Shown here: one piece after another, positions 11,374 through 64,000 of the stretch
Layout of the letters: every line of letters begins with the position of its first letter
Numbering within the stretch: position 1 is the first letter of the stretch
From: Dehalococcoidia bacterium
GTDB taxonomy: Bacteria; Chloroflexota; Dehalococcoidia; SM23-28-2; RBG-16-64-32
Length of the DNA stretch: 64,000 nucleotides
Direction of reading: 5' to 3'
Assembly: GCA_040877915.1 (NCBI GenBank)
Contig: JBBDNA010000013.1
Location: forward strand, 13,760 to 77,759
The notes under the pieces: model-generated
Database searches by the model: none
Told to the model about the DNA's origin: nothing
Seen by the model: the letters and a program-made list of their open reading frames with translations, nothing else
Position numbers and translations under genes: made by a program

Positions 11374-12455
11374 CCGCCCTCCTCGTCCTCGAGGACGGTT
11401 CCGCCTTCCCCGGCACGCCCCTCGGCGCCAGCGGCGCCGCCCACGGCGAGGTCGTCTTCTCCACCGCCATGACCGGCTACCAGGAGATGCTCACCGACCC
11501 CTCCTACGCCGGCCAGGTCCTCGTCCTCACCTACCCCCTCGCCGGCAACTACGGCATCAACCCCGATGACGTCGAATCGAAGCGCATCCAGGTCCGCGGC
11601 CTCGTCGTCCACCAGGCCTGCGACCTCCCCTCCCACTGGCGCTCCGACATGACCCTGCACCAGTACCTCGCCTCCCAGGACATCTCCGGCATCGCCGGCG
11701 TCGACACCCGCGCCATCACCCGCCGCCTGCGCTCCGCCGGCGTCATGATGGGCACGATCACGACCGACGAAACCGCCGCAGAGGCGCTGGCCCGGCTGCG
11801 CGCCCTCCCTCCATACGGCGAGACCGACTACGTCCGCCAGGTCACCGCCGACGCGCCCTACGATTGGCCCAACGGCGGTGACGAACCCGCGCGTCATGTC
11901 ATCGTCATGGACACCGGCCTGAAATACAACATCCTCCGCCTCCTCCGCGCGAAGGGCTGTCGTGTCACCGCCGTCCCCTGCACGACGGCTGCCGACGACA
12001 TCCTCGCTCTGAAGCCGGACGGCATCGTCTTCTCCCCCGGCCCCGGCGACCCCGCCCTCCTGGAGTACGCCGTCGACACCGTGAAGTCGCTGGTCGGCAA
12101 GACGCCCGTCCTCGGCATCTGCCTCGGCCACCAGCTCCTCGGTAGGGCCTTCGGCGCGACGACCTTCAAGCTGAAGTTCGGCCACCGCGGCGCCAACCAC
12201 CCCGTGAAGGACCTGCTCAGCGGCCGTGTCCACATCACCGCCCAGAACCACGGCTACGCCCTGGACGCCGACGGCCTGCGCGGCGGCCTGGAGGTCTCCC
12301 AGACCCACCTCAACGACGGCACCGTCGAAGGCCTCCACCACCGCTCCGAGCCCCTGCTCTCCATCCAGTACCACTCGGAGGCCTCGCCCGGCCCCCTGGA
12401 CAACGTCTACGTCTTCGACCGCTTCGTCGAGATGATCGAGGAGGTTGCCCGATGA
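11370..12455 (+). CDS. carA: Carbamoyl-phosphate synthase small subunit
   Basis: GYQEMLTDPSY, SPGPGDP, GICLGHQ, QYHSEASPGP. Confidence 0.97.
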   Translation: MTALLVLEDGSAFPGTPLGASGAAHGEVVFSTAMTGYQEMLTDPSYAGQVLVLTYPLAGNYGINPDDVESKRIQVRGLVVHQACDLPSHWRSDMTLHQYLASQDISGIAGVDTRAITRRLRSAGVMMGTITTDETAAEALARLRALPPYGETDYVRQVTADAPYDWPNGGDEPARHVIVMDTGLKYNILRLLRAKGCRVTAVPCTTAADDILALKPDGIVFSPGPGDPALLEYAVDTVKSLVGKTPVLGICLGHQLLGRAFGATTFKLKFGHRGANHPVKDLLSGRVHITAQNHGYALDADGLRGGLEVSQTHLNDGTVEGLHHRSEPLLSIQYHSEASPGPLDNVYVFDRFVEMIEEVAR

Positions 12456-13339: not shown

Positions 13340-13999
13340 ATGAGTGTCAGCAAGGTGCTCCGTTTTGAGGTTCTTCGCAGGGACAGGCTCACTTGCCGTT
13401 ATTGCGGTCGCACATCAGCGGAAGCCAAGCTGCACGTCGACCATCTCCACCCGACGGCATTGGGCGGCAAGGACACCTTGGACAACCTGGTGACCGCGTG
13501 TGAGGACTGCAACATCGGAAAGGCTGGCCGACTGGATGTGGCCATTCGGGGCCTTATTCAGAAGCCGCTGCCAAAGCCCGACGACGATCCGGACAGACCA
13601 GTATTGGCACACTTTGATATGCCGCCGCTGGATCTCCGGGAGCAGCTTGAGAACTTCTTCAAGCATGACTCATTATGGGTCAGCGATGGAGTAGGCCGAA
13701 AGATGTTCCTGTCGGAGCTGGGCGCTAGCGACGGGCAAATTCGGGGGGAGCCGTGGCAGGAAGATCGAGTCAACCAGCAGGAAGATTGGTTTAGGGATAT
13801 CCTTCGCCAGATTCCCGTCGATGAGAGGTGGGTGGTCGAGCGGCGAACCGGCTTGTGGACCGGAAGGTTCTACGCGCAACAATTCGCGGAGATTGGCGCT
13901 GAGCTGGGCGAGAGCGCCAATCACTCGAGAGAGTTGTATGAGCGTGGAATACTGAGACTGCGCAGACTGATCGGCTTGGAGGAATCACAGCCGTCGTGA
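13340..13999 (+). CDS. HNH endonuclease fused to a C-terminal sigma70 region-4-like HTH
   Basis: RFEVLRRDRLTCRYCG...LHVDH...GG...NLVTACEDCNIGK; C-terminal ERWVVERRTGL...FAEIGAELGESANHSRELYERGILRLRR; lower GC. Confidence 0.8.
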   Translation: MSVSKVLRFEVLRRDRLTCRYCGRTSAEAKLHVDHLHPTALGGKDTLDNLVTACEDCNIGKAGRLDVAIRGLIQKPLPKPDDDPDRPVLAHFDMPPLDLREQLENFFKHDSLWVSDGVGRKMFLSELGASDGQIRGEPWQEDRVNQQEDWFRDILRQIPVDERWVVERRTGLWTGRFYAQQFAEIGAELGESANHSRELYERGILRLRRLIGLEESQPS

Positions 14000-14061
14000 C
14001 CCCTCCCCCGCAGCGCGCCCTCACCCCGGGCTCCGGCCCCATCGTCATCGGCCAAGCCGCG
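13996..14061 (+). pseudogene. Degenerate duplicate of the carB 5' end
   Basis: Encodes MTPPPQR...[11 protein letters not shown], versus carB MTTPPQR...[11 protein letters not shown] at 14791. Confidence 0.8.
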
Positions 14062-14067
14062 TCAGCC

Positions 14068-14412
14068 CTACTCGCTGTCCCCCTCGTACACGACGCGGCC
14101 CGTGCGGATGATCTCGCGCAGGAAGGAGTGACGGCCGGGGTTATGGTACTCGCTGGACGGATAGCCGATGGGCGCGATGCGGGGGTCCGTCCCGCGGCTC
14201 AGGACGGCGAGGGTTTCCTGGCGACTGGGCATGGAAACTCCTTCGAAGTCTGGCGAAACGACCGCGACGTCGAAATCGCTCCACTCCCACGGCAGGCCCT
14301 TCACGTACGAACCGTACAAGACGATTGCTTCGACCCGGATGCCCTTGGTGAGGGCTGCGGCGAACTCTGCTATGGAGTGAGTTATCTCATCGTTTGTCGC
14401 AACTGCCCGCAT
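14068..14412 (-). CDS. Minimal nucleotidyltransferase (MNT) domain protein
   Basis: VLYGSYVKG...SDFDVAVVS (GS-x10-DxD). Confidence 0.88.
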   Translation of the reverse strand: MRAVATNDEITHSIAEFAAALTKGIRVEAIVLYGSYVKGLPWEWSDFDVAVVSPDFEGVSMPSRQETLAVLSRGTDPRIAPIGYPSSEYHNPGRHSFLREIIRTGRVVYEGDSE

Positions 14413-14750
14413 AAGCCCAATGACCTCTCGTAATATTGTAGCGCCATCGCCCGATCGTAAGTATCCCTTCCTGCGTATCGGCTTGCTATCGCCTGATTTG
14501 AAAGGCTTCGTAGGAAGTCCTCCCAGTCCGCGCTTAACAATCCAAGTTCCTGCGCAAGATCGACCAAATTGTGAGTGTATGGAGGCGGATCCTTATGGCC
14601 GCGCTCCACCCAGACGGCCTTTAGCATCTTCTCGACAGCCTGCTGGCTGTGAAACACGCAGGGCGCGTACAGGTCGCGTTCCAGGGTGGCTTGCGCCGTC
14701 TGCAAGTCTACGTCGCTCATATCAACCCATTCCCGCGTTTCCGGCTTCAT
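14382..14750 (-). CDS. HEPN domain protein (HEPN/MNT toxin-antitoxin-like pair)
   Basis: FHSQQAVEKMLKA, THNL, SRY motifs; adjacent to MNT; own promoter TTGACC-18-TAGGAT. Confidence 0.88.
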   Translation of the reverse strand: MKPETREWVDMSDVDLQTAQATLERDLYAPCVFHSQQAVEKMLKAVWVERGHKDPPPYTHNLVDLAQELGLLSADWEDFLRSLSNQAIASRYAGRDTYDRAMALQYYERSLGLCGQLRQTMR

Positions 14751-43239: not shown

Positions 43240-43436
43240 GTAGGGGGCGATCTTCTGAGCCTGTCGTGAGCATCGCCATCCCAATGTAGGGGCGACCTTC
43301 AGGTCGCCCGCAGAGCCTGCCCTGAGCTTGTCGAAGGGCGAGGCCCGCCAGCCCCGCTCGTCCTGAGCCCATCGAAGGGCGAGGCCCGCTAGCCCTGCTC
43401 GTCCTGAGCCTGTCGAAGGGCGAGGCCCGCTAGCCC
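43240..43436. repeat. REP cluster: two GTAG REPs plus three tandem family-B units of about 40 bp
   Basis: CCTGAGC-N3-TCGAAGGGCGAGGCCCGC x3; GTAGGGGCGACCTTCAGGTCGCCC at 43286. Confidence 0.85.
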
Positions 43437-44230
43437 CCCGCGTCCAGGGCCTGCGCTATCTCCCCCAGCAGCCACTCCACCCCCTCCGGCGCGATCCAGT
43501 AGTCCGCGGCCCCCATCACCTCCGGCGCCGCCTCCGCGCTCGCCACCGCGACCGTTACGGCTTCGACGCCCCGCAGCGCCACCGCCGCCCGGAACATGTC
43601 GATGTCCGTCACGTCGTCGCCCAGGCAGACCGCCGCCGCCAGCCCCAGCCGCTCCGTCAGCGCGGCCAGCGCCGTCCCCTTGTCCGCAGCTATCGGCGGC
43701 CGCAGCTCCACCACCATCCGCCCCTCTCGCACCTCGAACCGTCTCGCTGCCTCCGACCGCTCGATCGCCGCCAGGATCGCCTCTCGCGCGCCCTCTGGCT
43801 CGACCGCGTTGCGGTAGTGCACCGCCAGCAATGCCCCCGTGTTCTCGATCTGCACTCCGGGCGCCGACCCGGCGAGATCCGCCAGCTCCCGTTCGGTCGC
43901 CAGCGCCAGCGGCTCGTACTCCGCCAGCCCCGGCGCGCTCTCCCGCTTTCCCTCCACCCACAGCGTTAGCCCGTGGTCCGTCGCGTACGCCACTCCCTCC
44001 ACCCCCACCATCCGTCGCGCCGTTTCCAGCGGCCGTCCCGTGATCGCCGCCACCCGCACCCCCTTCGCGAGCAGCTCCCGCAGCAGCGACCGCACCGGCT
44101 CCGGCACCGTCGCCTTCTCCGGCCTGGCCACGATCGGCGCCAGCGTCCCGTCGATGTCCGACATCACGCCCAGCGGCCGCTGTCGGATGATCGGCAGCAG
44201 AGGCTCTATTCCCGTCAGCTCCTTCGCCAT
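43430..44230 (-). CDS. otsB: Trehalose-6-phosphate phosphatase
   Basis: DIDGTL, ITGR, VHYR, ELRP-DKG, GDDVTD. Confidence 0.93.
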   Translation of the reverse strand: MAKELTGIEPLLPIIRQRPLGVMSDIDGTLAPIVARPEKATVPEPVRSLLRELLAKGVRVAAITGRPLETARRMVGVEGVAYATDHGLTLWVEGKRESAPGLAEYEPLALATERELADLAGSAPGVQIENTGALLAVHYRNAVEPEGAREAILAAIERSEAARRFEVREGRMVVELRPPIAADKGTALAALTERLGLAAAVCLGDDVTDIDMFRAAVALRGVEAVTVAVASAEAAPEVMGAADYWIAPEGVEWLLGEIAQALDAGG

Positions 44231-53051: not shown

Positions 53052-53216
53052 CGGGGGACTAGCGCGGGACTCGGCCGTCGGTGGGTGTTGGTGCGGCTAA
53101 TCTCAGACTAAACCCACAGACGCGTGGCGCATTTCAGTAGCAATGCGAACTTATGTTGTTGACCTTGTTTAGGCCGCATGCTATCATGGCACAAAATTAT
53201 TCCGAGGAGATGCCGC

Positions 53217-53924
53217 ATGCCGCCCAAAGCAATATTTCCAGCGTTTCCGGTGAACGAGGCGAGGAAGCTGGCTGACGTTATCGCCCAAAAGAACGCGGGG
53301 CAGCCCATGCGCCGCCTTGACGTCTTTCATGAACTTGGGAAGTCTCCAACGAGTGGTCCCAGCCGACAACTTGTAACGGCCTCGGGGGCATATGGCTTCA
53401 CGACGGGGAGTTACAACGCTGACAAGCTTGCGCTGACCGCCCTCGGCCGCAAGTTGGCTGTCGACGGGGACGCCGCAGGTATGATAGATGCGGTGCTGAA
53501 CGTTGACGTATTCAAGCGGTTCTTCGAGAAGTACAAGAACAACATGGTTCCAGCGGAAGTTGCTGCGAAGAGCTTCTTCGCAGACGAGGGGGTCCCTGCT
53601 GAGCGCACCCACGTGTGTTGGGAACTCGCCCTTGCCAATGGTCGCGCGACAGGATTGATTGAGAACGTTTCAGGTAGCGAACGTATCCTCACGCCCGATC
53701 ACGCTCTCGAGAAGAAGATGTCTGGGCCTCCAGCGGGTGCGAAAGAGAAAAGAAGCGAGCGGAACGCGCCGTCGTCAAAGGATGGTTCCAAGGAGGCAGA
53801 CCAGCCTCCCCAGCCGTCCTTTCACGTTGACATACAAATCCATATCGACTCCAGCGCCTCGGCGGAACAGATCGAGCAGGTCTTCGCCAGCATGGCTCGG
53901 CATATCTACCGGCGTGAGGGATGA
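53217..53924 (+). CDS. Lower-GC hypothetical protein (predicted wHTH-like N-terminus, PSFHVDIQIHI C-terminal domain)
   Basis: SD GAGGAG; coupled by ATGA to the next gene. Confidence 0.75.
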   Translation: MPPKAIFPAFPVNEARKLADVIAQKNAGQPMRRLDVFHELGKSPTSGPSRQLVTASGAYGFTTGSYNADKLALTALGRKLAVDGDAAGMIDAVLNVDVFKRFFEKYKNNMVPAEVAAKSFFADEGVPAERTHVCWELALANGRATGLIENVSGSERILTPDHALEKKMSGPPAGAKEKRSERNAPSSKDGSKEADQPPQPSFHVDIQIHIDSSASAEQIEQVFASMARHIYRREG

Positions 53925-54460
53925 GGAGTATCCCTGGGATCGAGGTCGGCACTGCAGCCGTCCAAGGGATTAGGGCCGCCGTTGTTGGCGTCGGTCTTCA
54001 CCGATCGCGCTCTGACGTTCCCGATACCCTCCAACTTGGGCCCATGCACCTATACGACGAGCTGATCACTGAGAGTGGGCTTCGAGAGGTTAGCCGCAGC
54101 CTGTTCGAAGATGGTCATTTCGCCCGCGCCGTGGAAGAAGCCTATAAGTTCCTAAACAACGAGGTGAAAAGGAGAGCTGGTTCAAATAAGGACGGTCCGG
54201 ACCTGATGCATCACGCTTTCAGTGAGGAAAAACCACTGCTAAAGCTGAACGCTCTACGGTCTACCTCAGAGAGAGACGAGCAGGCCGGCTACAGGTTCAT
54301 GTTCGCTGGTAGCATGTCGGGCGTTAGAAATCCGCGTGCGCACGAGCACGATCTTCGGGATCGGCGGGACGCAGCCCTAGAGCTGCTTGTGGCGGCGAAT
54401 CACTTACTCAGGATCCTGGGCAAGGCCAAGCGTGCCCGTCCGAGACGCGGCGGAGCCTGA
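53921..54460 (+). CDS. TIGR02391 (Ymh)-like protein with HEPN-type RxxxxH motif
   Basis: LF-DGHF-AVEEA-K, DG-DLM-AFS, S-RDEQ-G-MF-G-RNPRAHE. Confidence 0.85.
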   Translation: MRSIPGIEVGTAAVQGIRAAVVGVGLHRSRSDVPDTLQLGPMHLYDELITESGLREVSRSLFEDGHFARAVEEAYKFLNNEVKRRAGSNKDGPDLMHHAFSEEKPLLKLNALRSTSERDEQAGYRFMFAGSMSGVRNPRAHEHDLRDRRDAALELLVAANHLLRILGKAKRARPRRGGA

Positions 54461-55703: not shown

Positions 55704-56654
55704 ATGGTCCGTCATTCTGAGCGATTCCGAGGTACCTTCGAGAAGCGCATGATATCTCTGAGCGAAGAATCTCGGCGAATCGCAGATCACCCCGCCCGGA
55801 GTGAGGGCCATCCCACCATCCGCCAGACCCTCCGCGACGCCGCCGACGCCCTCGCCGCCATCGGCTCGGATGAAGCCACCCTCGAGGCCGAGCTCCTCCT
55901 CGCCCACGCCCTCCACACGGACCGCGCCCACCTCTACCAGCGCCTCGCCGAGGATCTGGCCGAGGAGGCCGCCCGCGCCTTCGACGCCCTCCTCGCCCGG
56001 CGCCTCGTGCGCGAGCCCACCGCCTACATCCTGGGCCGCCGCGAGTTCTACGGCCTCGAACTTGAAGTTATCCCCGCCGCCATCATCCCCCGCCCCGACA
56101 CCGAGACCCTCGTCGACCTCGTCCTCGATTTCGCCCGTGGGCGCGGCGCCGTCTCCATCGCCGACGTCGGCACTGGCTCCGGCGCCATCGCCATCGCTCT
56201 GGCCGTCAACCTCCCGCAAGCCGAGATCACCGCCATCGACGTCTCCCCGGACGCCCTCGCCCTCGCCCGCCGCAACGCCCAGCGCCACGGCGTCGCCGAA
56301 CGCATCCGCTTCCTGGAGGGCGACCTGCTCGCCCCACTGGACGGTCGGGCCGACGTCATCGCCGCCAACCTCCCCTACGTCCCCAGCGCCGAGCTCCAGG
56401 CCGGTCCGCCCGAGATCCGCGAGCACGAGCCCCGCCTCGGTCTGGACGGCGGCCCCGACGGCCTCCGCCTCATCGAGCGCCTCGTCCGGCAGACCCCCGC
56501 CCGCCTCCGCCCCGGCGGCGCCCTGTTCGCCGAGATCGGCGACACCCAGGGCCCCGCCGTCCTCGCCCTCGCCCGCGCGGCCTTCCCCGCCGCCCGCGCC
56601 GAAGTTGCGCGAGACCTTGCCGGCCTCGACCGCGTCCTCGTCGTCGGCCTGTAG
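55704..56654 (+). CDS. prmC: Release factor glutamine methyltransferase (start uncertain)
   Basis: EP-AYILG-REFYG, IPRPDTE, DVGTGSG, ANLPY, LDGG-DGL; follows prfA. Confidence 0.93.
   Translation: MVRHSERFRGTFEKRMISLSEESRRIADHPARSEGHPTIRQTLRDAADALAAIGSDEATLEAELLLAHALHTDRAHLYQRLAEDLAEEAARAFDALLARRLVREPTAYILGRREFYGLELEVIPAAIIPRPDTETLVDLVLDFARGRGAVSIADVGTGSGAIAIALAVNLPQAEITAIDVSPDALALARRNAQRHGVAERIRFLEGDLLAPLDGRADVIAANLPYVPSAELQAGPPEIREHEPRLGLDGGPDGLRLIERLVRQTPARLRPGGALFAEIGDTQGPAVLALARAAFPAARAEVARDLAGLDRVLVVGL
55710..55776 (+). repeat. Family-A repeat, subfamily 2
   Basis: GTCATTCTGAGCGA-33 nt-CTGAGCGAAGAATCTCGGC. Confidence 0.85.
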
Positions 56655-56666
56655 CCCCACCTCAAC

Positions 56667-56733
56667 TGTCATTCTGAGCGATTCCGGACCACATCCGATG
56701 TTGGTGCAGCAGTACTGAGCGAAGAATCTCGGC
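56667..56733 (+). repeat. Family-A repeat, subfamily 2
   Basis: TGTCATTCTGAGCGA-33 nt-CTGAGCGAAGAATCTCGGC. Confidence 0.85.
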
Positions 56734-58012: not shown

Positions 58013-58405
58013 CTACGACCAGAACGCGTCGGTTTTCTGCGCGTCCTCGCTGAACGACCAGAACTCCGTGACCTTCCCGTCCTTCATGTGGTACACGTCG
58101 ACGTCGGCGGAGTCCAGCGTCCGGCCCTCGCGGCTCCCCTTCGCCCGCGTCAGCGATACGGTGTGGTCGTCGTTCGCCACCACATCGTGCACCTCTATAT
58201 TGAACGAGCCGCCGGTCAGCTCAACCGTCTTCGCGAATATCGCGAACACTGCGTCGCGGCCCTTATGCGTTCCTGCCAGCTGGTTGTTGCCGGACGCGTG
58301 CCACACCACGTCCTCCGCAAACAGGTTCGTCAGCGTCGCCATATCGCCCTTGGCGAACGCGGCGTAGCCGTCCTTCAGCAGCTTGGCGTTGGGATGATCA
58401 GCCAT
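58013..58405 (-). CDS. SnoaL/NTF2-like protein
   Basis: YAAFAKGD...LFAEDVVWH-G...DGKVTEFW; SD AAGGAGG. Confidence 0.9.
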   Translation of the reverse strand: MADHPNAKLLKDGYAAFAKGDMATLTNLFAEDVVWHASGNNQLAGTHKGRDAVFAIFAKTVELTGGSFNIEVHDVVANDDHTVSLTRAKGSREGRTLDSADVDVYHMKDGKVTEFWSFSEDAQKTDAFWS

Positions 58406-58559
58406 AGCGGGGCCTCCTTCTTGTTTCGGGTGGATACTGATGCGATAAGCTTAGCGACTCGCGGAAGCGCCTGTCTACGGCTCGTGCCCCTCGCCCGCTC
58501 GCTCTAACCGCTATCTAACCGCGGCCCCCGGTCTCATCGTGGGGGAAGAGCCTCGTCGC

Positions 58560-58747
58560 CTACCGCGACAGCTGGTAGACCTTCCCCTCGGTCTTTATCG
58601 ACGGCGCCACTGATGTCATTCTGAGCGTCGACGACGGTCGCTTGAGGCATCGAGGATTGCCGCGAAGGAATCTGGGGTGGGGAAGACTCGCGCGACGGGA
58701 ACGAAGGGCGCCTAGCGGGACAGCTGGTAGACCTTGCCCTCGGTCTT
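58560..58747 (-). repeat. Twice-repeated 36-bp gene 3' end (KTEGKVYQLSR*), att-like, flanking a family-A repeat (58614-58682)
   Basis: 58560-58595 vs 58712-58747: 33/36 identical, all three differences synonymous. Confidence 0.8.
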
Positions 58748-58873
58748 ATGAAAGGAAAAAGGTCGCGTTCCGTGCGGTGGTAGCGGCGTGAGGCCCATGA
58801 CGTTCACCCTTGCCGCCGCCAGCGCCGCGCCGAGCGCTACACCCGCTGAGCACGTCCCTGGGAGGCGCTGGCT

Positions 58874-59224
58874 GTGAAACCTACCCAACCCCCCGCCGAA
58901 GGCTCTGGCGACCCCAGATTTATCCCCACGAAGCCTCGACGCGCCCTGGGCAAGAAAGCGGCGGATAGGCGGTACGCCGAGATGCTGGACGGCCATGATC
59001 TGCCCGCCTGGAAGCGCCGGATGCTCCGTGTCGTGGCGAGGAAGATGGTTCACGCCGAGAACCTCAGCAACGCCCTCTTCTACGAGGGCGAGCTTCGCCA
59101 GGACGGCGAGCCGAAGATGGCGCTGGCCAAGCTCCATGACCTCACCAAAGAGGTGCGGGCAGACCTGGCATTCATCTTCGAGGGCGAGACCGATGATCCC
59201 TTCGCAGACCTCCACGGACGTTGA
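58874..59224 (+). CDS. Hypothetical protein, candidate terminase small subunit
   Basis: 116 aa helical protein directly upstream of and overlapping terL; C-terminal DDPFA; SD GGAGG. Confidence 0.5.
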   Translation: MKPTQPPAEGSGDPRFIPTKPRRALGKKAADRRYAEMLDGHDLPAWKRRMLRVVARKMVHAENLSNALFYEGELRQDGEPKMALAKLHDLTKEVRADLAFIFEGETDDPFADLHGR

Positions 59225-60641
59225 GCGCGCCCTGGCCTTCCTGGGCCAGCTAGTCCTGCCCTCCGGCCGGACGCTAGGCAGCAGCTTCGAGACAGACCCC
59301 TGGCTCGTGGACTCCGTACTGGCCCCCGCCCTGGCGAGGGACGGCGAGGCGAGGCCCCTACACCGCCGCCTGTGGTGGGAGGACGTGAAGGGCGCTGGCA
59401 AGACAAGCCTGCTGGGAGCGTTGGGCTTCACCGAGTGCGCCCTAGAGCCTGGCCTCCAGTGCTACATCGTGGCCGGCGACGCCGAGCAAGCGGGCTTGGT
59501 GCTGGAGGCCCTGAGCGGACTGCTGGCGCACTCGCCGAGCCTTCGCCGAGCCGTGCGTCAGACCTCCGCGCGGTTCACTCTCAGCAACGGCTCGTTCCTC
59601 AAGGTAATGAGCGCCGACAGCGAGACCTTCCACGGCGTCGGCACGGGCCGCAGGCAGCTATACCTCCTGGACGAGCTCACCAACTGGCCCGACACCCCGC
59701 GCCATGAGTCCCTGTACCACGCCGTGATGTCCAGCCTGGCCAAGACGCCGAGCGCCGCCATCCGCATCGCCGCCAACCCTGGCGTGGCCGGCAGCTGGCA
59801 GGCCGAAGCGAAGGAGAAGCTCGCGGCGGCGGGGGCCTGTATGTACGACGCCCCGCCTGGCCGACTGCCCTCCTGGGTGAGCCGTGAGGACGTGGAGGCC
59901 CTCCGCCTTGTCCTCCCGGAACCGCTGTGGGCGCGATACTACGGCGGGCGCTGGGTGAGCGAGGTTACGGGGCAGGCCATCTCCACCGAGGCCTGGGATG
60001 CCTGCCACGCCGAGCTTCCGCCGCTGGACGCGAGGACGCCCCTGGTCGTGGGCATCGACGCGGGCGTCACGCACGACTGCTTCGCCATCGTGGTCGTGGC
60101 GAAGTACCTACCGCCACGCGGCGAGCCTGCGTACGTACACTCGGAGCTCATCAGCCTACAGCTCCCGCCCAGGGCGTCGGAGGCGGAGGTGTGGGTGCGG
60201 GCCGTTGGAGTCTGGGAGCCCCAAGGCGTGCCCCTGGACTTCGGCGAGCCGCGCCGCTGGCTGGCCGAGTTCGTCCGGGAGCATCGCGTGGTCTGTATAG
60301 CCTACGACCCCTACCAGCTTCACAGCTGGGCTACCGACTTCGGACGCGATCACGGCGTCTGGATGGCGGAGTTCTCACAACAAGGGGCGCGGGCGCAGGC
60401 CGACGCCGACCTTGTGGCGTTGGTGAGGGCGGGGCGGCTACGCCACGACGGCGATGAGGTTCTACGGAGTCATGCCCTCGGCGCAGCGTTCAGGGTCAGC
60501 ACCGACGGGCGAGCGCGATTCGTCAAGGCGCACGGCTCGAAGAAGATAGACGCCCTGGTCGCGCTCTCGATGGCGTCGGCGCAGGGGATGTACCTGAACC
60601 TGCCCATCATTCGGGAGCGAGCGGGTCTTGACCAGGTGTAA
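59193..60641 (+). CDS. terL: Phage terminase large subunit
   Basis: Walker A KGAGKTS, Walker B LYLLDE, nuclease VVGIDAG-x3-DCFA, AYDPYQ, KIDALVALSMA. Confidence 0.88.
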   Translation: MIPSQTSTDVERALAFLGQLVLPSGRTLGSSFETDPWLVDSVLAPALARDGEARPLHRRLWWEDVKGAGKTSLLGALGFTECALEPGLQCYIVAGDAEQAGLVLEALSGLLAHSPSLRRAVRQTSARFTLSNGSFLKVMSADSETFHGVGTGRRQLYLLDELTNWPDTPRHESLYHAVMSSLAKTPSAAIRIAANPGVAGSWQAEAKEKLAAAGACMYDAPPGRLPSWVSREDVEALRLVLPEPLWARYYGGRWVSEVTGQAISTEAWDACHAELPPLDARTPLVVGIDAGVTHDCFAIVVVAKYLPPRGEPAYVHSELISLQLPPRASEAEVWVRAVGVWEPQGVPLDFGEPRRWLAEFVREHRVVCIAYDPYQLHSWATDFGRDHGVWMAEFSQQGARAQADADLVALVRAGRLRHDGDEVLRSHALGAAFRVSTDGRARFVKAHGSKKIDALVALSMASAQGMYLNLPIIRERAGLDQV

Positions 60642-60903
60642 TCCGGTAGATGCCCGCTCCTATGACGAACGCAATGGCACCCGTTAACCCTAGGACGAAG
60701 TTCAATACCCAGGCAGAGAAACCACCCATCAGTGCGCCTAGTGGAATGCCCAAGATTATCCCAAGTATGATCCCCATCTCGTCAACCAATGCTACGGTCG
60801 TGCTCACTAGAACGCCAACGAAAGTAGCCCACATCAGAATCGTAGTTACGATGTTCCAAATGAAGGCTAGGGCTAGACCAGTGTACAGGACGATGCGTTT
60901 CAT
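60607..60903 (-). CDS. Small membrane protein (element cargo)
   Basis: Hydrophobic, low GC, SD GAGGG. Confidence 0.7.
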   Translation of the reverse strand: MKRIVLYTGLALAFIWNIVTTILMWATFVGVLVSTTVALVDEMGIILGIILGIPLGALMGGFSAWVLNFVLGLTGAIAFVIGAGIYRITPGQDPLAPE

Positions 60904-60926
60904 AATGCCCCTCTCTCCCCCTATTG

Positions 60927-61406
60927 TCATTCATCGACGAGCAAGCGGCGGGCAGTTGCGATATCGATGTCGCCATACGAATACTCGGCGAGCAATCGCA
61001 CTGCAAGACGTGTCTGGTCGTTGGCTGCCCCCTGTTCGGTTACGTACTCGCTTGCCTCAAACTCTCTAAGTGATTCGTATTCCCACTTCAGACTAACGCC
61101 TGGGCAGGCCATTTCCAGCTCGTACGTGTCAGGTTCGTCCTCCCCGAATCCACCACTAAGGGTCACACTTTCGATGACGCTTCCCTTGTACTTCACTTCG
61201 TCGCGTCCACAGATGGCGGCGATGAACCCGCCTATGGTGAAGGGGTCGTCACAGAAGTCTTGGACTTCCTCGTCTGCACACGTCCACGTCTCAGACGAAT
61301 CGTTTATGAAGGGGTAGACGCATTGATAGAACAAGAGCCCAGCCATAATGGCAGCCGCTACGATTCCCGCCAGCACGCCACCGACTCTTGAAGCCCATTC
61401 GTTCAT
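60927..61406 (-). CDS. Membrane-anchored acidic hypothetical protein (element cargo)
   Basis: N-terminal TM, Cys-containing outer domain. Confidence 0.65.
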   Translation of the reverse strand: MNEWASRVGGVLAGIVAAAIMAGLLFYQCVYPFINDSSETWTCADEEVQDFCDDPFTIGGFIAAICGRDEVKYKGSVIESVTLSGGFGEDEPDTYELEMACPGVSLKWEYESLREFEASEYVTEQGAANDQTRLAVRLLAEYSYGDIDIATARRLLVDE

Positions 61407-61409
61407 GCC

Positions 61410-61811
61410 CTACTCGCAACCGAGCCCGTCGTTATCCGCGTCTAGGCCGAACACGTCCGGCCCGACCACCTGCACCGGCCCCGTGTACAGCGGCCCGTCC
61501 CCGCTCCCTCCGAGGCAGTCATAGTCCGATGCGTTCGGGTCTAGGCAGGTCCCAGCATAGGAGGGGTGGCAGGCTTGGCCAGGCTCATCCTGCACGGGCG
61601 GCGGGATGATGGGCGCCAGCGTCGGCAGGGGCGTTGGGGTCGGTGCCTCGGTTGGTTGGGGAGTAGCCGTAGGTGTGGGCTCCGGGGCCTCGGTGGCCTC
61701 CAAGACGGCGGCTGGCTCGTCGTCCCCACAGCCCGCCGCCGCAGCTGCGGCTACTACGACAATGAAGGCGACTACGCCGAGGATCGGCCCCTTCCACCAC
61801 GACAGCCACAT
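61410..61811 (-). CDS. Lipoprotein with Pro/Thr linker and Excalibur-like Ca-binding C-terminal domain
   Basis: AAGC lipobox; CHPSY-C...DYDC-GG-G-GP...LDADNDGLGCE. Confidence 0.75.
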   Translation of the reverse strand: MWLSWWKGPILGVVAFIVVVAAAAAAGCGDDEPAAVLEATEAPEPTPTATPQPTEAPTPTPLPTLAPIIPPPVQDEPGQACHPSYAGTCLDPNASDYDCLGGSGDGPLYTGPVQVVGPDVFGLDADNDGLGCE

Positions 61812-62301
61812 CTGATGCTACCCCCTCCCTAGCAGTATGGGGAGTCTAGAGCGGGCGCGGCTAGGTTGTCAAGCTCGACCTTTCCCCTCCATTATTCGTA
61901 GGAATAACAGGCCTCCAATTATCACCTTTTGGGCGCTAAAGGATTAATTCGCGTCAAAATAGGCGTCCCGCCCCCTTTACTTCTCCCCCCCAGACGATTA
62001 ATATGAATCTAGAGGCCATTAGAGATCGCGTAGCAGCCACAAGTCCGACCCAACCACTGAAGCTGAGGCCGTCGCTGGCCACGCCGCCTCCATCGATCAC
62101 ATCACCATCTGCTTCGGCCCCGACGATGAGGCCGACTTCTTCCCCGAGACGCTAGACCCTGAGCGCTTAGCGCGTCGCCTGAGAGCGCTCGTCGCTCTGC
62201 TAGCCACCAATCCCACGCTAATCGCCTGTGCCGCTGGCGCACATGAAAATAGCCCTCCGCCTGATGACTCGGAGGGCTACGTCTGAAGAACGGAGGTCGC
62301 G

Positions 62302-64000
62302 ATGACAACCTCAGGGTTAACGATAACGCTCCCGCCTGCCGGTGACAATGAGCAGCGGCTGCGAGCGTTGATAGACAAGCTGCTGGAAAAGCGAGCCGAC
62401 CCGCCCGCGCCGAGCGTCAGCGGGGGCGAGGTTTACCTCTGGTGCCCGTTCCATGACGACGGTAATCGGCCCAACCTCCGCCTGAACGCTGCCAAGGCGG
62501 TATGGTACTGCGACGTCTGCACCCAGGGCGGCTCGTTCGCCGATCTCGAACGTCGTCTCGGGCTGAACGGCCACGACACTAAGGGCTTCATCAGGCTGGA
62601 TGACCCCTGGCTGTTCTTCGAGCAGCGGGGTCTGCCGCGCGAGTTCGTCACGCAGCAAGGCGTGGGGCTGACGACCGTGCGCGACGGCAAGCCTGCCTTC
62701 GAGTTCAACAGCGGCAAAGTGCGGCCCCTGGGAGAGCGCTACTTTTGGCGGCAGGAACCCGCCCTCCGACCCCCGTTCTGGCCAATCCCGCCGTCGGCTG
62801 GTGAGACCGACACCACCATCATCCTTACCGCAGGGGAGACGGACTGCCTCACGACCCGCTACGCAGGGTTCGAGAACGCCTACGCCGTCACCAAGGGCGA
62901 GGGCACGGTGCCCTGGCCGTCCGCCTTCCGTGCACTACGGGTTTTGGGATACACCGAGGCCGTAGTTCTGTTCGACCTCGACGACGCGGGTGAAGTGGGA
63001 GCGCCGAAGGTCGCCGAAGCCGCCGCCCGTGCCGGCCTGCCGGCGAAAGTCGCGAAGCTGAAGGACGCAGTCGCCCTTCGCGGGGGCAAGGACGTGAGCG
63101 ACCTGTTCCGGCTGTTGCGCTTCGACCGCGACAAGCTGCGGCACGCCATCAGCAACGCCGTCGAGGGGGCAGTCGAGGTTTCCGTTTCCTTTTCGCCCCC
63201 TTATAGAGAAAAAAAGGAAATAGAAACAGAGCCGACCGCCTGGCAACCCTTGGCCGTAACCGAAGGCGGCGGAGAAGGTGCAGACGTCGCCTGGCTGTGG
63301 GGCGAGGGGGAACACGGCCTGCTGGCGGCGGGCCAACTAACCGACGTGACGGGGTTTTGGAAGTCCGGAAAGACCACCCTCATCAGCTCCTACCTGGCTC
63401 TCCTCCGCGACGGCGGCTCCCTGGCCGGTATGCCCGTAAAGCCTGGCCGTGCGCTCGTGGTGACGGAGGAATCATCCAAGCGCTGGAGCCGCAGGGCGGA
63501 GGAGATGCAGATCCCTGCCGAGGTGGTGGATAAGATTTGCCGACCGTTCCGGCGCAAGCCTTCTTGGGACGATTGGTACGCATTCGTAGAACATGCAGCC
63601 GCGCTACAGGTCGAGCGTCGTTACGACGTAATCGTCGCCGATGCCCTGCCCCACCTGTGGCCGGTCGTGAACGAGAACGACAGCATGGAAGTCTTGCGGG
63701 CGGTACAGCCGCTGCACACGTGGGCGGAGGCCGGAGCCGCCGTGCTCCTGGTACGCCACCCGCGCAAGACGGGCGGCGAGGAGGCTACGGCGGGGCGCGG
63801 CAGCGGGTCGCTGGCCGCATTCGTGGACGTTGTCGTAGAATTCCGCCGCTACGTCCCCAAAGTTATCGTAGACACCCGCCGCGTCATCACGGTGTATTCC
63901 CGCGAGGAGCCGTTTGAGGTCGTAGTGGACTGGGATGGGGCCGTTGGCTACGAGGTCGTGGGCGCACGGGATGAGGTGCGCCGTGCCGACAGGCTGTCCG
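62302..64000 (+). CDS. Primase-helicase: CHC2 zinc finger + TOPRIM + RecA-type AAA domain (3' truncated; missing from ORF track)
   Basis: SD GGAGG; CPFHDD...WYCDVC; LTAGETD, FDLDDAG, GKDVSD; GFWKSGKTT, VTEE, HPRK, RGSGSL. Confidence 0.88.
   Translation, partial: MTTSGLTITLPPAGDNEQRLRALIDKLLEKRADPPAPSVSGGEVYLWCPFHDDGNRPNLRLNAAKAVWYCDVCTQGGSFADLERRLGLNGHDTKGFIRLDDPWLFFEQRGLPREFVTQQGVGLTTVRDGKPAFEFNSGKVRPLGERYFWRQEPALRPPFWPIPPSAGETDTTIILTAGETDCLTTRYAGFENAYAVTKGEGTVPWPSAFRALRVLGYTEAVVLFDLDDAGEVGAPKVAEAAARAGLPAKVAKLKDAVALRGGKDVSDLFRLLRFDRDKLRHAISNAVEGAVEVSVSFSPPYREKKEIETEPTAWQPLAVTEGGGEGADVAWLWGEGEHGLLAAGQLTDVTGFWKSGKTTLISSYLALLRDGGSLAGMPVKPGRALVVTEESSKRWSRRAEEMQIPAEVVDKICRPFRRKPSWDDWYAFVEHAAALQVERRYDVIVADALPHLWPVVNENDSMEVLRAVQPLHTWAEAGAAVLLVRHPRKTGGEEATAGRGSGSLAAFVDVVVEFRRYVPKVIVDTRRVITVYSREEPFEVVVDWDGAVGYEVVGARDEVRRADRLS

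Follow-up and report, generated by a model that had tools for sequence, protein, structure and literature searches.

A phage-derived insert in a Dehalococcoidia contig carries an HK97-type large terminase and a primase-helicase and may be the left end of a satellite-like element

Results

A terminase, antisense envelope genes and a replicase at the right edge of the window

We find that the last 5.4 kb (58.6–64.0 kb) of a 64-kb stretch of DNA from a Dehalococcoidia bacterium, here called the window and comprising all 64,000 nucleotides analysed, is a phage-derived insert that we read as the left end of an element, in which a small-terminase-like gene, an HK97-type terL, an antisense trio of envelope genes and a primase-helicase gene follow one another from left to right. 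The reading that we prefer, with a probability of roughly 0.4, is that of a helper-dependent satellite-like element with a terminase of its own that would use a helper's capsids. The genes on the left flank are housekeeping genes (relA/spoT, hisS, prfA and prmC), and the contig from which the window comes measures 82,820 nt, with between 264 nt and 18.8 kb lying to the right of the window, outside the sequence analysed. The features of the insert and its left margin are as follows.

58557..58595, no strand: direct repeat copy 1, 39 nt
58709..58747, no strand: second copy of the direct repeat, with 92% identity to the first
58874..59224, plus strand: conserved 116-aa helical protein, putative small terminase (predicted fold resemblance)
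59193..60641, plus strand: HK97-type large terminase (TerL) of 482 aa, seemingly intact (PHROG, Pfam, profile alignment)
60607..60930, minus strand: polytopic membrane protein, 107 aa (98 aa from an internal ATG), GC 0.52 (membrane prediction)
60927..61406, minus strand: 159-aa protein, membrane anchor at the N-terminus, acidic body with five Cys, GC 0.55
61410..61811, minus strand: 133-aa lipoprotein with signal peptide, lipobox, Pro/Thr-rich linker and Excalibur-like C-terminal end
61812..62301, no strand: intergenic, low GC, with promoter-like sites in divergent orientation and small ORFs
62302..64000, plus strand, running off the window: fused primase-helicase (CHC2 Zn ribbon, TOPRIM, AAA_25/RepA-like)

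No portal, capsid, protease or integrase gene was detected across the 64-kb window, in a scan for structural genes and integrases that covered 16 ORFs between 40 and 57 kb and 45 ORFs between 1 and 40 kb, and a tyrosine-integrase HMM run against all six-frame ORFs of the window likewise returned no integrase. Within the visible 5.4 kb, Pfam and PHROGs reveal no head or tail genes, and an AlpA/MerR/Stl-type regulator together with an integrase at one end is not seen. All large genes of the element are full length, with no truncated phage gene in its visible part. A preliminary description of this DNA, which had reported terL followed by antisense ORFs and then a zinc finger–TOPRIM–AAA replication gene, with no portal or capsid after terL, is borne out on all of these points for the visible part; its three antisense envelope genes are also present, with low GC holding for two of them only.

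The large terminase is intact and belongs to a well-supported clade

The terL ORF extends from 58995 to 60641, with the ATG at 59193 the likely true start, and this start is overlapped by the gene for the 116-aa protein. Among PHROGs, TerL matches phrog_9 ('terminase large subunit') at 3.9e-39, and in Pfam it matches TerL_nuclease at 2.7e-08; when 16 relatives are combined into a profile, the profile can be aligned to HK97 gp2 across 440 columns with 99.2% probability. Walker A (KGAGKT), Walker B (LLDE) and the nuclease residues D289, D372 and D453 all occupy invariant columns of the 16-row alignment, and the window protein retains every invariant column of its family. GC3 lies between 0.80 and 0.95 throughout the gene, with a strong codon-position bias. 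At its C-terminus, TerL carries a tail of 12 residues that extends past the end of its relatives, 13 of 15 of which stop within 0–2 residues; the drop in GC described below begins at this tail.

A TerL phylogeny, suggested in the preliminary description, places the window protein in a 16-row clade with support of 100/100; this clade stands apart from that of the TerLs of compact elements found in other Chloroflexota. An AU test rejects the joining of the window clade with nine labelled compact TerLs (p 4.6e-44), and since this group was chosen after the tree had been seen and omits four sequences nested in the compact clade (L011, L016, L018 and P0040), the test is post hoc and incomplete and adds little to the tree.

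The upstream gene encodes a putative small terminase

The 116-aa gene has a GGGAGG 8 nt upstream of its GTG start at 58874, and the nearest two full-length relatives of its product likewise start with MKP. Exhaustive phmmer searching yields 51 relatives of 62–181 aa, whereas a word-based search returned only the window's own 80-aa version of the protein. The AlphaFold (AF2) model has a pLDDT of 87.4 and contains helices at residues 27–38, 45–71 and 82–101. A Foldseek comparison with viral models (BFVD) gives 31 rows at E<1, of which 20 bear the name small terminase, with no row at E<=0.001, and against the PDB the HK97 TerS (6z6e_A) appears at rank 22 with a TMq of 0.42. An Atlas feature search returns viral clusters at 0.92 and, as a lead, a cluster at 0.89 with Terminase_4 in 16% of its members. 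On the strength of this modelled fold, we annotate the protein as a putative small terminase.

A sequence-level tie to terminases was also sought and dropped. Neither Pfam nor PHROGs returns a family for the protein itself or a terminase family for any of the 39 aligned members of its family, one of which reaches an unnamed phrog at 0.009; the PDB profile search gives nothing below E 0.06, and hhalign against HK97 gp1 gives a probability of 2.7%. The terS-like ORF of the preliminary description is thus upheld as a conserved, intact gene with a small-terminase-like predicted fold, and falls short of a terminase family match in sequence. A predicted complex of TerL with the small protein scored 0.00 in both runs and is used neither way.

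A compositionally distinct envelope cassette adjoins terL

The three envelope ORFs are tightly packed and antisense to terL. The gene at 60607–60930 and terL have convergent 3' ends that overlap by 35 nt, and the stop codon of the gene for the 159-aa protein shares the tetranucleotide ATGA with the start codon of its neighbour. GC falls from 0.68 to 0.50–0.55 across the first two envelope genes (60607–60930 and 60927–61406), which puts a junction in base composition at the terL 3' end, and the lipoprotein gene has a GC3 of 0.75–0.90. The lipoprotein carries the lipobox AAGC at residues 25–28, and its Pfam Excalibur match (E 0.0083, 16.9 bits) lies under the 22-bit cut-off. Beyond this sub-threshold match, the envelope genes match nothing in Pfam, PHROG, PADLOC or NCBIfam, and the 159-aa protein has no usable Atlas match. 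A holin/spanin-type lysis cassette was considered for these genes and dropped, with no endolysin and no family support.

The intergenic region that separates the cassette from the primase-helicase gene contains a promoter-like site on the minus strand (61872–61843; 10 of 12 matches) and another on the plus strand (61866–61895). One or two putative small ORFs, at 62003–62155 and, in another frame, 62023–62286, are ambiguous as to coding frame and match no family.

The primase-helicase combines three replication domains

The gene that begins at ATG 62302, 5 nt downstream of a GGAGG, ends about 260 nt past the window, and the gene-caller version of its product (P0043) is 631 aa long. Pfam identifies AAA_25 (1.2e-15), Toprim_4 (8e-05) and Zn_ribbon_DnaG (0.0033), and the protein also matches PHROG primase/helicase families. 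The AAA_25/RepA-like domain is common to relatives with various N-terminal domains. Against cultured phages the protein gives one match, of 47 residues in the Zn ribbon, and against plasmids none.

Genome contigs were searched for related loci. With the primase-helicase, 270 pattern matches were obtained, none of which encodes a relative, and a scan with the TerL alignment found distant TerLs only, at no more than 42% identity over short segments; neither scan yielded a gene neighbourhood for another member of the window's TerL clade. The close relatives of TerL (P0002–P0018) are 53–39% identical to it, and the longest of their contigs measures 59,404 nt. Relatives of TerL and relatives of the primase-helicase have no contigs of matching size, and the linkage of the two genes is thus seen in this window only. 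Relatives of the small protein likewise share no same-size contigs with those of TerL or the primase-helicase, a comparison that is uninformative, as the protein sets were clustered differently.

The direct repeat lies on one side of the element

The two copies of the 39-nt repeat are the only ones in the 64 kb, 152 nt apart, and 0 of 100 shuffles gave two matches. Copy 2 is the repeat that the preliminary description had taken for an attachment site, with the terminase pair starting about 130 bp from it. The distance is right, at a measured 127 nt, and the assignment is not confirmed: both copies lie to the left of the terS-like gene with nothing visible flanked by them, and no Rfam family, tRNA included, is found at the repeat region. 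Between the copies, at 58615–58633, sits a degenerate form of a host repeat motif (GTCATTCTGAGCG), which also occurs at 55711 and 56668.

Other Chloroflexota harbor compact TerL elements with defined ends

Four elements in other Chloroflexota (L020, L013, L022 and L017) measure 8420, 8293, 8474 and 8448 nt and are bounded by direct repeats, and two of them sit at tRNA-Leu and tRNA-Pro; in L020 the att, located in tRNA-Leu, is a perfect 52-nt repeat. Their joint gene set comprises an integrase, a Zn-ribbon/TOPRIM primase, an AAA_25 helicase, TerL and a small protein, and in these four elements head genes have neither a match nor room. Mini-elements that carry TerL and no capsid genes thus do occur in Chloroflexota. 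The small protein, located before terL, bears a KGNQNAVKHGG motif, and a conserved 250-aa protein, all-alpha in its AF2 model, follows terL. A role of the latter as capsid or scaffold was considered and set aside, given the all-alpha model, uninformative PDB sequences and a BFVD TMq of at most 0.31. We found no published description of 8.3–8.5 kb TerL elements from Chloroflexota in the literature text accessible to us.

The window element resembles these compact elements in phylum, in the presence of a small protein, TerL and the Zn-ribbon/TOPRIM and AAA_25 domains, and in having no visible head genes. The differences are nonetheless extensive. The replication domains are split between two proteins in the compact elements and fused into one in the window; primase and helicase lie upstream of terL there, in a gene order unlike the window's; and the compact elements have their own TerL clade, a different small protein and the additional 250-aa protein, with an integrase and attachment sites demonstrated, whereas the window element displays neither of the last two in its visible part. 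The two small proteins align by hhalign with a probability of 0.1%, and HMMs of the compact small and 250-aa proteins find nothing below E 0.67 among the six-frame ORFs of the window; by TerL clade and by these two proteins, then, the window element falls outside the compact group. A unit as long as the compact elements, about 8.4 kb, would have its right end near 67 kb, past the edge of the window.

Comparison with known phages and satellites

The TerL of the window is homologous over its whole length to that of HK97-type temperate phages, with weak tblastn matches, and on both sides a small gene lies directly upstream of terL. In those phages, however, portal, protease/scaffold and capsid genes follow terL, where we find antisense envelope genes and a replicase. 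The portal gene comes directly after terL in all three reference phages (HK97, Thermobifida P318 and Streptomyces Success), as the preliminary description had held to be normal, and in L007-type prophages of Chloroflexota as well. The large terminase expected of a tailed prophage (Caudoviricetes) is present in the window.

In the accessible part of de Sousa et al. 2023 (PMC10085698), PICIs are defined as having terS only and cfPICIs as having terL plus head genes, which agrees with the preliminary description, and the cfPICI head genes form the same module as terL. The window element is like a cfPICI, as far as the accessible text of PMC10085698 and PMC10690885 describes these, in being a chromosomal island with a primase-replicase and its own TerS and TerL, the window terS resting on fold resemblance only; it differs in that the capsid, protease, portal and head-tail adaptor/connector that define cfPICIs in the same text are not found in the visible 5.4 kb. 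Classical PICIs/SaPIs and PICI-like tycheposons are likewise described, in the portions of the literature accessible to us, as small and integrative, combining a primase-helicase and a packaging gene with accessory cargo; they carry terS or a capsid-like gene and no terL and use the helper's large terminase. The primase-replicase of a PICI is present in the window as Zn ribbon, TOPRIM and AAA_25, whereas the full-length TerL departs from the PICI pattern.

With P4-like satellites and VEIMEs, the window element shares a primase-helicase as replication gene. P4 relies on its helper's terminase, while the window element carries TerL, and among the six visible proteins there is no PHROG or Pfam match to Sid, Psu or Delta. 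VEIMEs mostly have no capsid genes, and some have terS homologues or 'motor-like ATPases', according to the accessible part of 10.1101/2022.07.26.501625, in which we found no description of an HK97-type TerL in a VEIME. The routes by which satellites are known to be packaged, again from accessible portions of the literature, are to rely on the large terminase of the helper (P4, SaPIs, PLEs), to redirect it via a TerS of their own, or to bring a whole head (cfPICIs, MulchRoom/MiniFlayer).

Discussion

The preliminary description proposed a satellite with its own packaging motor and replicase; the gene content and the non-canonical order on which it drew are real, and neither an integrase nor flanking att sites are seen. 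The satellite-like reading is strengthened by the occurrence of bounded, capsid-less TerL elements in other Chloroflexota. We consider it plausible and not settled, because the sequence stops, the repeat copies are one-sided, no integrase is visible, the scans gave no second gene neighbourhood for the window's TerL clade and as much as 18.8 kb of contig lies to the right of the window, where head and tail genes could be located.

That stretch of contig is also what makes room for a complete temperate phage of unconventional order, with the terminase by the left attachment site, a moron cassette, replication, and head and tail genes beyond the window. The intact HK97-type TerL would suit such a phage, as would cargo genes that are foreign in composition, as morons are, and the 12-residue TerL tail, which would mark a recombination junction at that point. 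The portal directly after terL in the reference phages and L007-type prophages argues against it, however, and portal, protease/scaffold, capsid, connectors, tail, lysis, regulation and integrase would all have to fit into at most 18.5 kb. A replication gene between terL and portal would also be unusual for tailed phages in general. We judge a complete phage unlikely.

We also think it improbable that the insert is an immobile, defective mosaic remnant, in which head genes were deleted or replaced by the low-GC cassette and the terminase came to stand beside an unrelated replication gene. The full length of every large gene and the lack of a truncated phage gene speak against decay, as do the invariant columns and strong codon-position bias kept by TerL and the intact small partner gene with its good ribosome-binding site. 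Several observations nevertheless point the other way: the compositional junction at the terL stop and the aberrant C-terminal tail of TerL, the adjacent repeat copies with a host motif between them, which suggest past rearrangement, the small ORFs upstream of the primase-helicase, whose frame is ambiguous or shifted, and the lack of same-size contigs for TerL and primase-helicase relatives. Very improbable, by comparison, is the co-option of a terminase-like pair by the host or a non-viral element, for defence or plasmid-like maintenance, such that nothing is packaged. Head genes are indeed not visible, and the AAA_25/RepA-like domain does occur in relatives with various N-terminal domains, but TerL keeps the ATPase and nuclease motifs of packaging enzymes, the primase-helicase has no plasmid match and the six element proteins match no PADLOC defence family save for an 18-bit Zn-ribbon match.

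On the satellite-like reading, a related HK97-like phage would provide the trigger, through either induction or infection, upon which the element would be replicated by its own primase-helicase. Its TerS–TerL would recognise a site on the element, a candidate for which is the pair of repeats that precedes terS, dock onto the helper's portal and load element DNA into helper-made capsids. The envelope genes would be cargo expressed in the lysogen, serving, for example, to block superinfection, and the integrase and second att copy would lie beyond the right edge of the window.

It is possible, though in our judgement doubtful, that the window element and, independently, the compact elements represent an undescribed kind of satellite that combines TerS, TerL and a replicase with no portal or capsid. 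The motor of such a satellite would dock on the helper portal and out-compete the helper for procapsids at the level of the motor, not by capsid remodelling. TerS and TerL without a portal would then place the satellite midway between PICI and cfPICI and would open to experiment the question of how specific terminase–portal contacts are. Satellites would thereby also become known from Chloroflexota, for which few phages are in culture. Should head genes lie to the right, the finding would shrink to a prophage in which morons and a replication gene are inserted after terL.

A possible coding signal in the 39-nt repeat

The repeat was also considered as a folded RNA or terminator and rejected as such (z-score 0.83, no Rfam match). 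Its two copies differ at three positions, 58563, 58566 and 58584, and these differences are silent only in the minus-strand frame KTEGKVYQLSR-stop, a pattern that could mark a gene 3' end that has been displaced. When three substitutions are placed at random, at least one of the six frames leaves them silent in 14% of cases, which makes the silent pattern (p ~0.14) weak evidence for such an origin, and no parent gene ending in the repeat-encoded C-terminus was found in the window or the fetched loci. GC3 is locally raised in the frames that match the silent-difference pattern.

Gene content of the element

We find that the gene order proposed in the preliminary description, a terS-like gene, terL, membrane cargo and a primase-helicase, with no portal or capsid gene after terL in the window, is borne out by gene annotation, and at a probability of roughly 0.4 we regard the element, of which the first 5.4 kb are in view, as satellite-like. 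Its genes are:

58874-59224 (+), 116-aa small protein, putative small terminase
59193-60641 (+), terL, large terminase, 482 aa
60607-60930 (-), polytopic membrane protein
60927-61406 (-), protein anchored once at its N-terminus, with five Cys in an acidic body
61410-61811 (-), lipoprotein (lipobox AAGC) with a linker rich in Pro/Thr and an Excalibur-like end that scores below threshold
62302 to window end (+), primase-helicase with CHC2 Zn ribbon, TOPRIM and AAA_25/RepA-like ATPase; GGAGG 5 nt before ATG

The terminase pair

TerL matches phrog_9 (3.9e-39) as well as the TerL nuclease domain, and its alignment with HK97 gp2 covers 440 columns (99.2% probability); among 177,635 distinct PDB sequences, the single match below E 0.001 is a terminase large subunit (6z6d_A, E 7e-21). 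The frame is open from 58995, and ATG 59193 is the plausible start: it gives a 32-nt overlap with the end of the upstream gene, and the alignment of relatives begins at that Met. The Walker A Lys, Walker B Glu and three nuclease Asp are invariant in TerL and 15 relatives (41-52% identity), third-position GC is 0.80-0.95 along the whole gene, and the protein looks functional. We find 41 related proteins besides the window's own, 17 of them at 39-54% identity and all 17 of these from metagenomes or MAGs; the best identity to a cultured phage is 24%, and neither scan of representative genomes returned a close relative. In a tree of 60 TerLs, from which one related database protein (P0041) was excluded for its long branch, the window TerL falls in a 16-row clade with support of 100/100.

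The 116-aa protein starts at a GTG with GGGAGG 8 nt upstream. It has no family match in Pfam, PHROGs, PADLOC or NCBIfam, and a word-indexed search returns only the window's own copy; exhaustive phmmer finds 51 relatives. Their common core spans approximately residue 19 to residue 115, so that the 116-aa form must be the real one and not the 80-aa form of the gene caller; the call stored in the database thus starts later than this evidence implies (window 58874-58981). An AlphaFold2 model built from the relatives' alignment is confident and has three helices (pLDDT 87.4, pTM 0.73). Foldseek with this model returns nothing at E<=0.001; the viral models with E<1 number 31, and 20 of these are annotated as small terminase, some of the P27/COG3747 kind, and the solved HK97 small terminase ranks 22 in the PDB search. 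The terS-like assignment thus draws on position, conservation and predicted fold, for which a small terminase is the best reading, but sequence-level tests against terminases give no link.

The terL 3' junction, envelope genes and replication gene

TerL carries a C-terminal extension of 12 residues (60606-60641); in 13 of 15 relatives the point where it starts is no more than 0-2 residues from the C-terminus. The extension coincides with the antisense-gene overlap and with a drop in GC that sets in at the end of terL, from 0.68-0.72 in terL to 0.52-0.55 in 60607-60930 and 60927-61406. The extra residues and the change in composition mark a recombination junction at the terL 3' end, the site of either an insertion or a deletion. 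The three envelope genes are packed like an operon, the spacing being first 3 nt and then an overlap in an ATGA, and a promoter-like site (10/12 matches) lies just upstream of the first of them.

A 490-nt low-GC spacer with divergent promoter-like sites precedes the primase-helicase. Within it, at 62003-62286, a 50-aa ORF begins at ATG 62003, and a longer open frame, protein-like but lacking any ATG, GTG or TTG to start from, overlaps it in a different frame. Together they may represent a small gene with a frameshift ahead of the primase-helicase; the small ORFs there have no family match and their codon-position signal is ambiguous. The primase-helicase extends past the window, and its database copy is 631 aa; the database call begins at a TTG 22 codons past the ATG with the strong GGAGG (window 62302-62367), which by this evidence is too late. 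What its 17 relatives have in common is mainly the ATPase half, and their N-terminal domains vary among winged helix, Prim-Pol and TOPRIM, as is common in the replication proteins that mobile elements encode.

Host setting and the 39-nt repeat

Window GC is approximately 66%, and all annotated genes left of 58.5 kb are chromosomal. The 45 ORFs scanned in 1-40 kb include the pyr operon, carA/carB, metal transport, a Fur-family regulator, ApbC, agmatinase, amidase, RNase Z and glycerol-3-phosphate dehydrogenase; the 16 scanned in 40-57 kb include trehalose synthesis genes, a ComM-like ATPase, relA/spoT, hisS, prfA and prmC, and to the right of these genes lie a pair of small membrane ORFs and then a SnoaL-like gene (58013-58405). 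Neither set contains a phage structural gene or integrase, and a local HMM trained on seven tyrosine integrases that come from related loci finds no match in any six-frame window ORF. By their source names, relatives of the element's proteins come from Dehalococcoidia, Chloroflexota and Thermoflexus, consistent with a Chloroflexota host, as are the titles of 19 of the 25 TerL-related loci.

Two islets interrupt the chromosomal genes. One lies between carA and carB (13340-14750) and holds an IscB/Cas9-like HNH domain ORF (13340-13996), an MntA-like antitoxin (14068-14409) and one further small ORF. The other sits between hisS and prfA (53178-54460), comprises two genes and has a lower GC (0.58); its second gene encodes a Hypoth_Ymh protein with additional matches to the PD-Lambda-3_B and Aga HEPN defence models.

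The 39-nt repeat at 58557-58595 and 58709-58747, far above chance, had been described as att-like. Our results do not confirm an att site: the window holds only these two copies, 152 nt apart and both left of terS, and they match no tRNA or Rfam family and have no unusual fold. The three differences between the copies are silent in one minus-strand frame (p ~0.14 for this pattern alone), and GC3 nearby is elevated in the frames that match. The copies would be consistent with a gene 3' end displaced twice, by successive integrations, although no parent gene was found; equally possible is a candidate binding site for the terminase or integrase. Between the copies lies a degenerate instance (58615-58633) of a dispersed host motif, beginning GTCATTCTGAGCG, that flanks prmC at 55711-55729 and 56668-56686. 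A second repeat family of 41-50 nt occurs near 43.3 kb (43286-43451, with 45044 and 55645 listed among the dispersed repeats).

Interpretation of the element

A satellite is the most economical reading of an insert whose edge carries an intact terminase pair and whose next genes are cargo and a replicase. Such an element would replicate by its own primase-helicase, and its own TerS-TerL would load its DNA into the capsids of a helper. A complete prophage whose head genes have been displaced is less likely; at most 18.8 kb of the contig lies beyond the window. The portal directly follows terL, starting within 15 nt of its stop, in the phages HK97, Thermobifida P318 and Streptomyces Success, whereas here opposite-strand genes follow. 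The recombination junction at the end of terL is what a mosaic remnant might leave, and this reading, set against a terminase pair that appears intact, is about as likely as the prophage. The satellite reading would possibly add a variant to phage satellites.

Compact elements of other Chloroflexota

We annotated 17 of the 25 distant TerL-bearing loci (leaving out L005, L006, L008 (near copies of L007), L009, L012, L015, L021 and L024), comparing 138 proteins with PHROGs and 53 with Pfam. Head-related matches occur within 6 kb after terL in four of the 17 (L002, L007, L019, L025). A well-supported TerL clade of Chloroflexota loci only unites nine compact loci with L011, L016, L018 and one database protein. 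The compact layout comprises a Zn-ribbon/TOPRIM primase and AAA_25 helicase (or a Prim-Pol type), then a conserved ~130-aa protein, a TerL of 544-613 aa, a conserved ~250-aa protein (8 loci) and an integrase. These integrative elements of Chloroflexota MAGs measure 8.3-8.5 kb; their boundaries are readable in four loci, and the family also occurs in L010, L014, L015, L023 and L024.

Extents of compact elements
L020, 5107-13578: perfect 52-nt repeats 8420 nt apart, one inside tRNA-Leu
L013, 5182-13520: perfect 46-nt repeats 8293 nt apart, at tRNA-Pro, integrase alongside
L022, 5578-14070: 19-nt repeats 8474 nt apart
L017, 55-8802: two tandem units, 8448 nt apart

The compact elements contain no head genes. 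A confident model shows the ~250-aa protein as all-alpha, hence it is not an HK97-fold capsid protein, and the listed genes already fill the 8.4 kb, leaving no room for a head module. These bounded ~8.4-kb units establish that capsid-less integrative elements with a large terminase and replicase exist in Chloroflexota; our literature searches turned up no description of such elements.

The window's element has in common with them a small protein, TerL and Zn-ribbon/TOPRIM and AAA_25 functions. However, its TerL lies in a different clade, its small protein is unrelated to the ~130-aa protein, it lacks the ~250-aa protein, and its replication gene follows terL rather than preceding it; no other protein of the window has a match in the compact loci. 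It is not a member of the compact family. The compact elements raise the prior for the satellite reading of the window's element without testing it, and the bounded 8.4-kb elements are themselves the firmer lead.

In L023 (12753-15196) and L010 (12884-13549) the element adjoins a truncated ComM-like gene (Mg-chelatase family); the L023 fragment lies directly against a serine integrase, an arrangement that points to integration into comM. At L018, three 29-nt repeats with 61-nt spacing (11952-12102), resembling a CRISPR array, come right after the integrase that follows terL, where the locus ends.
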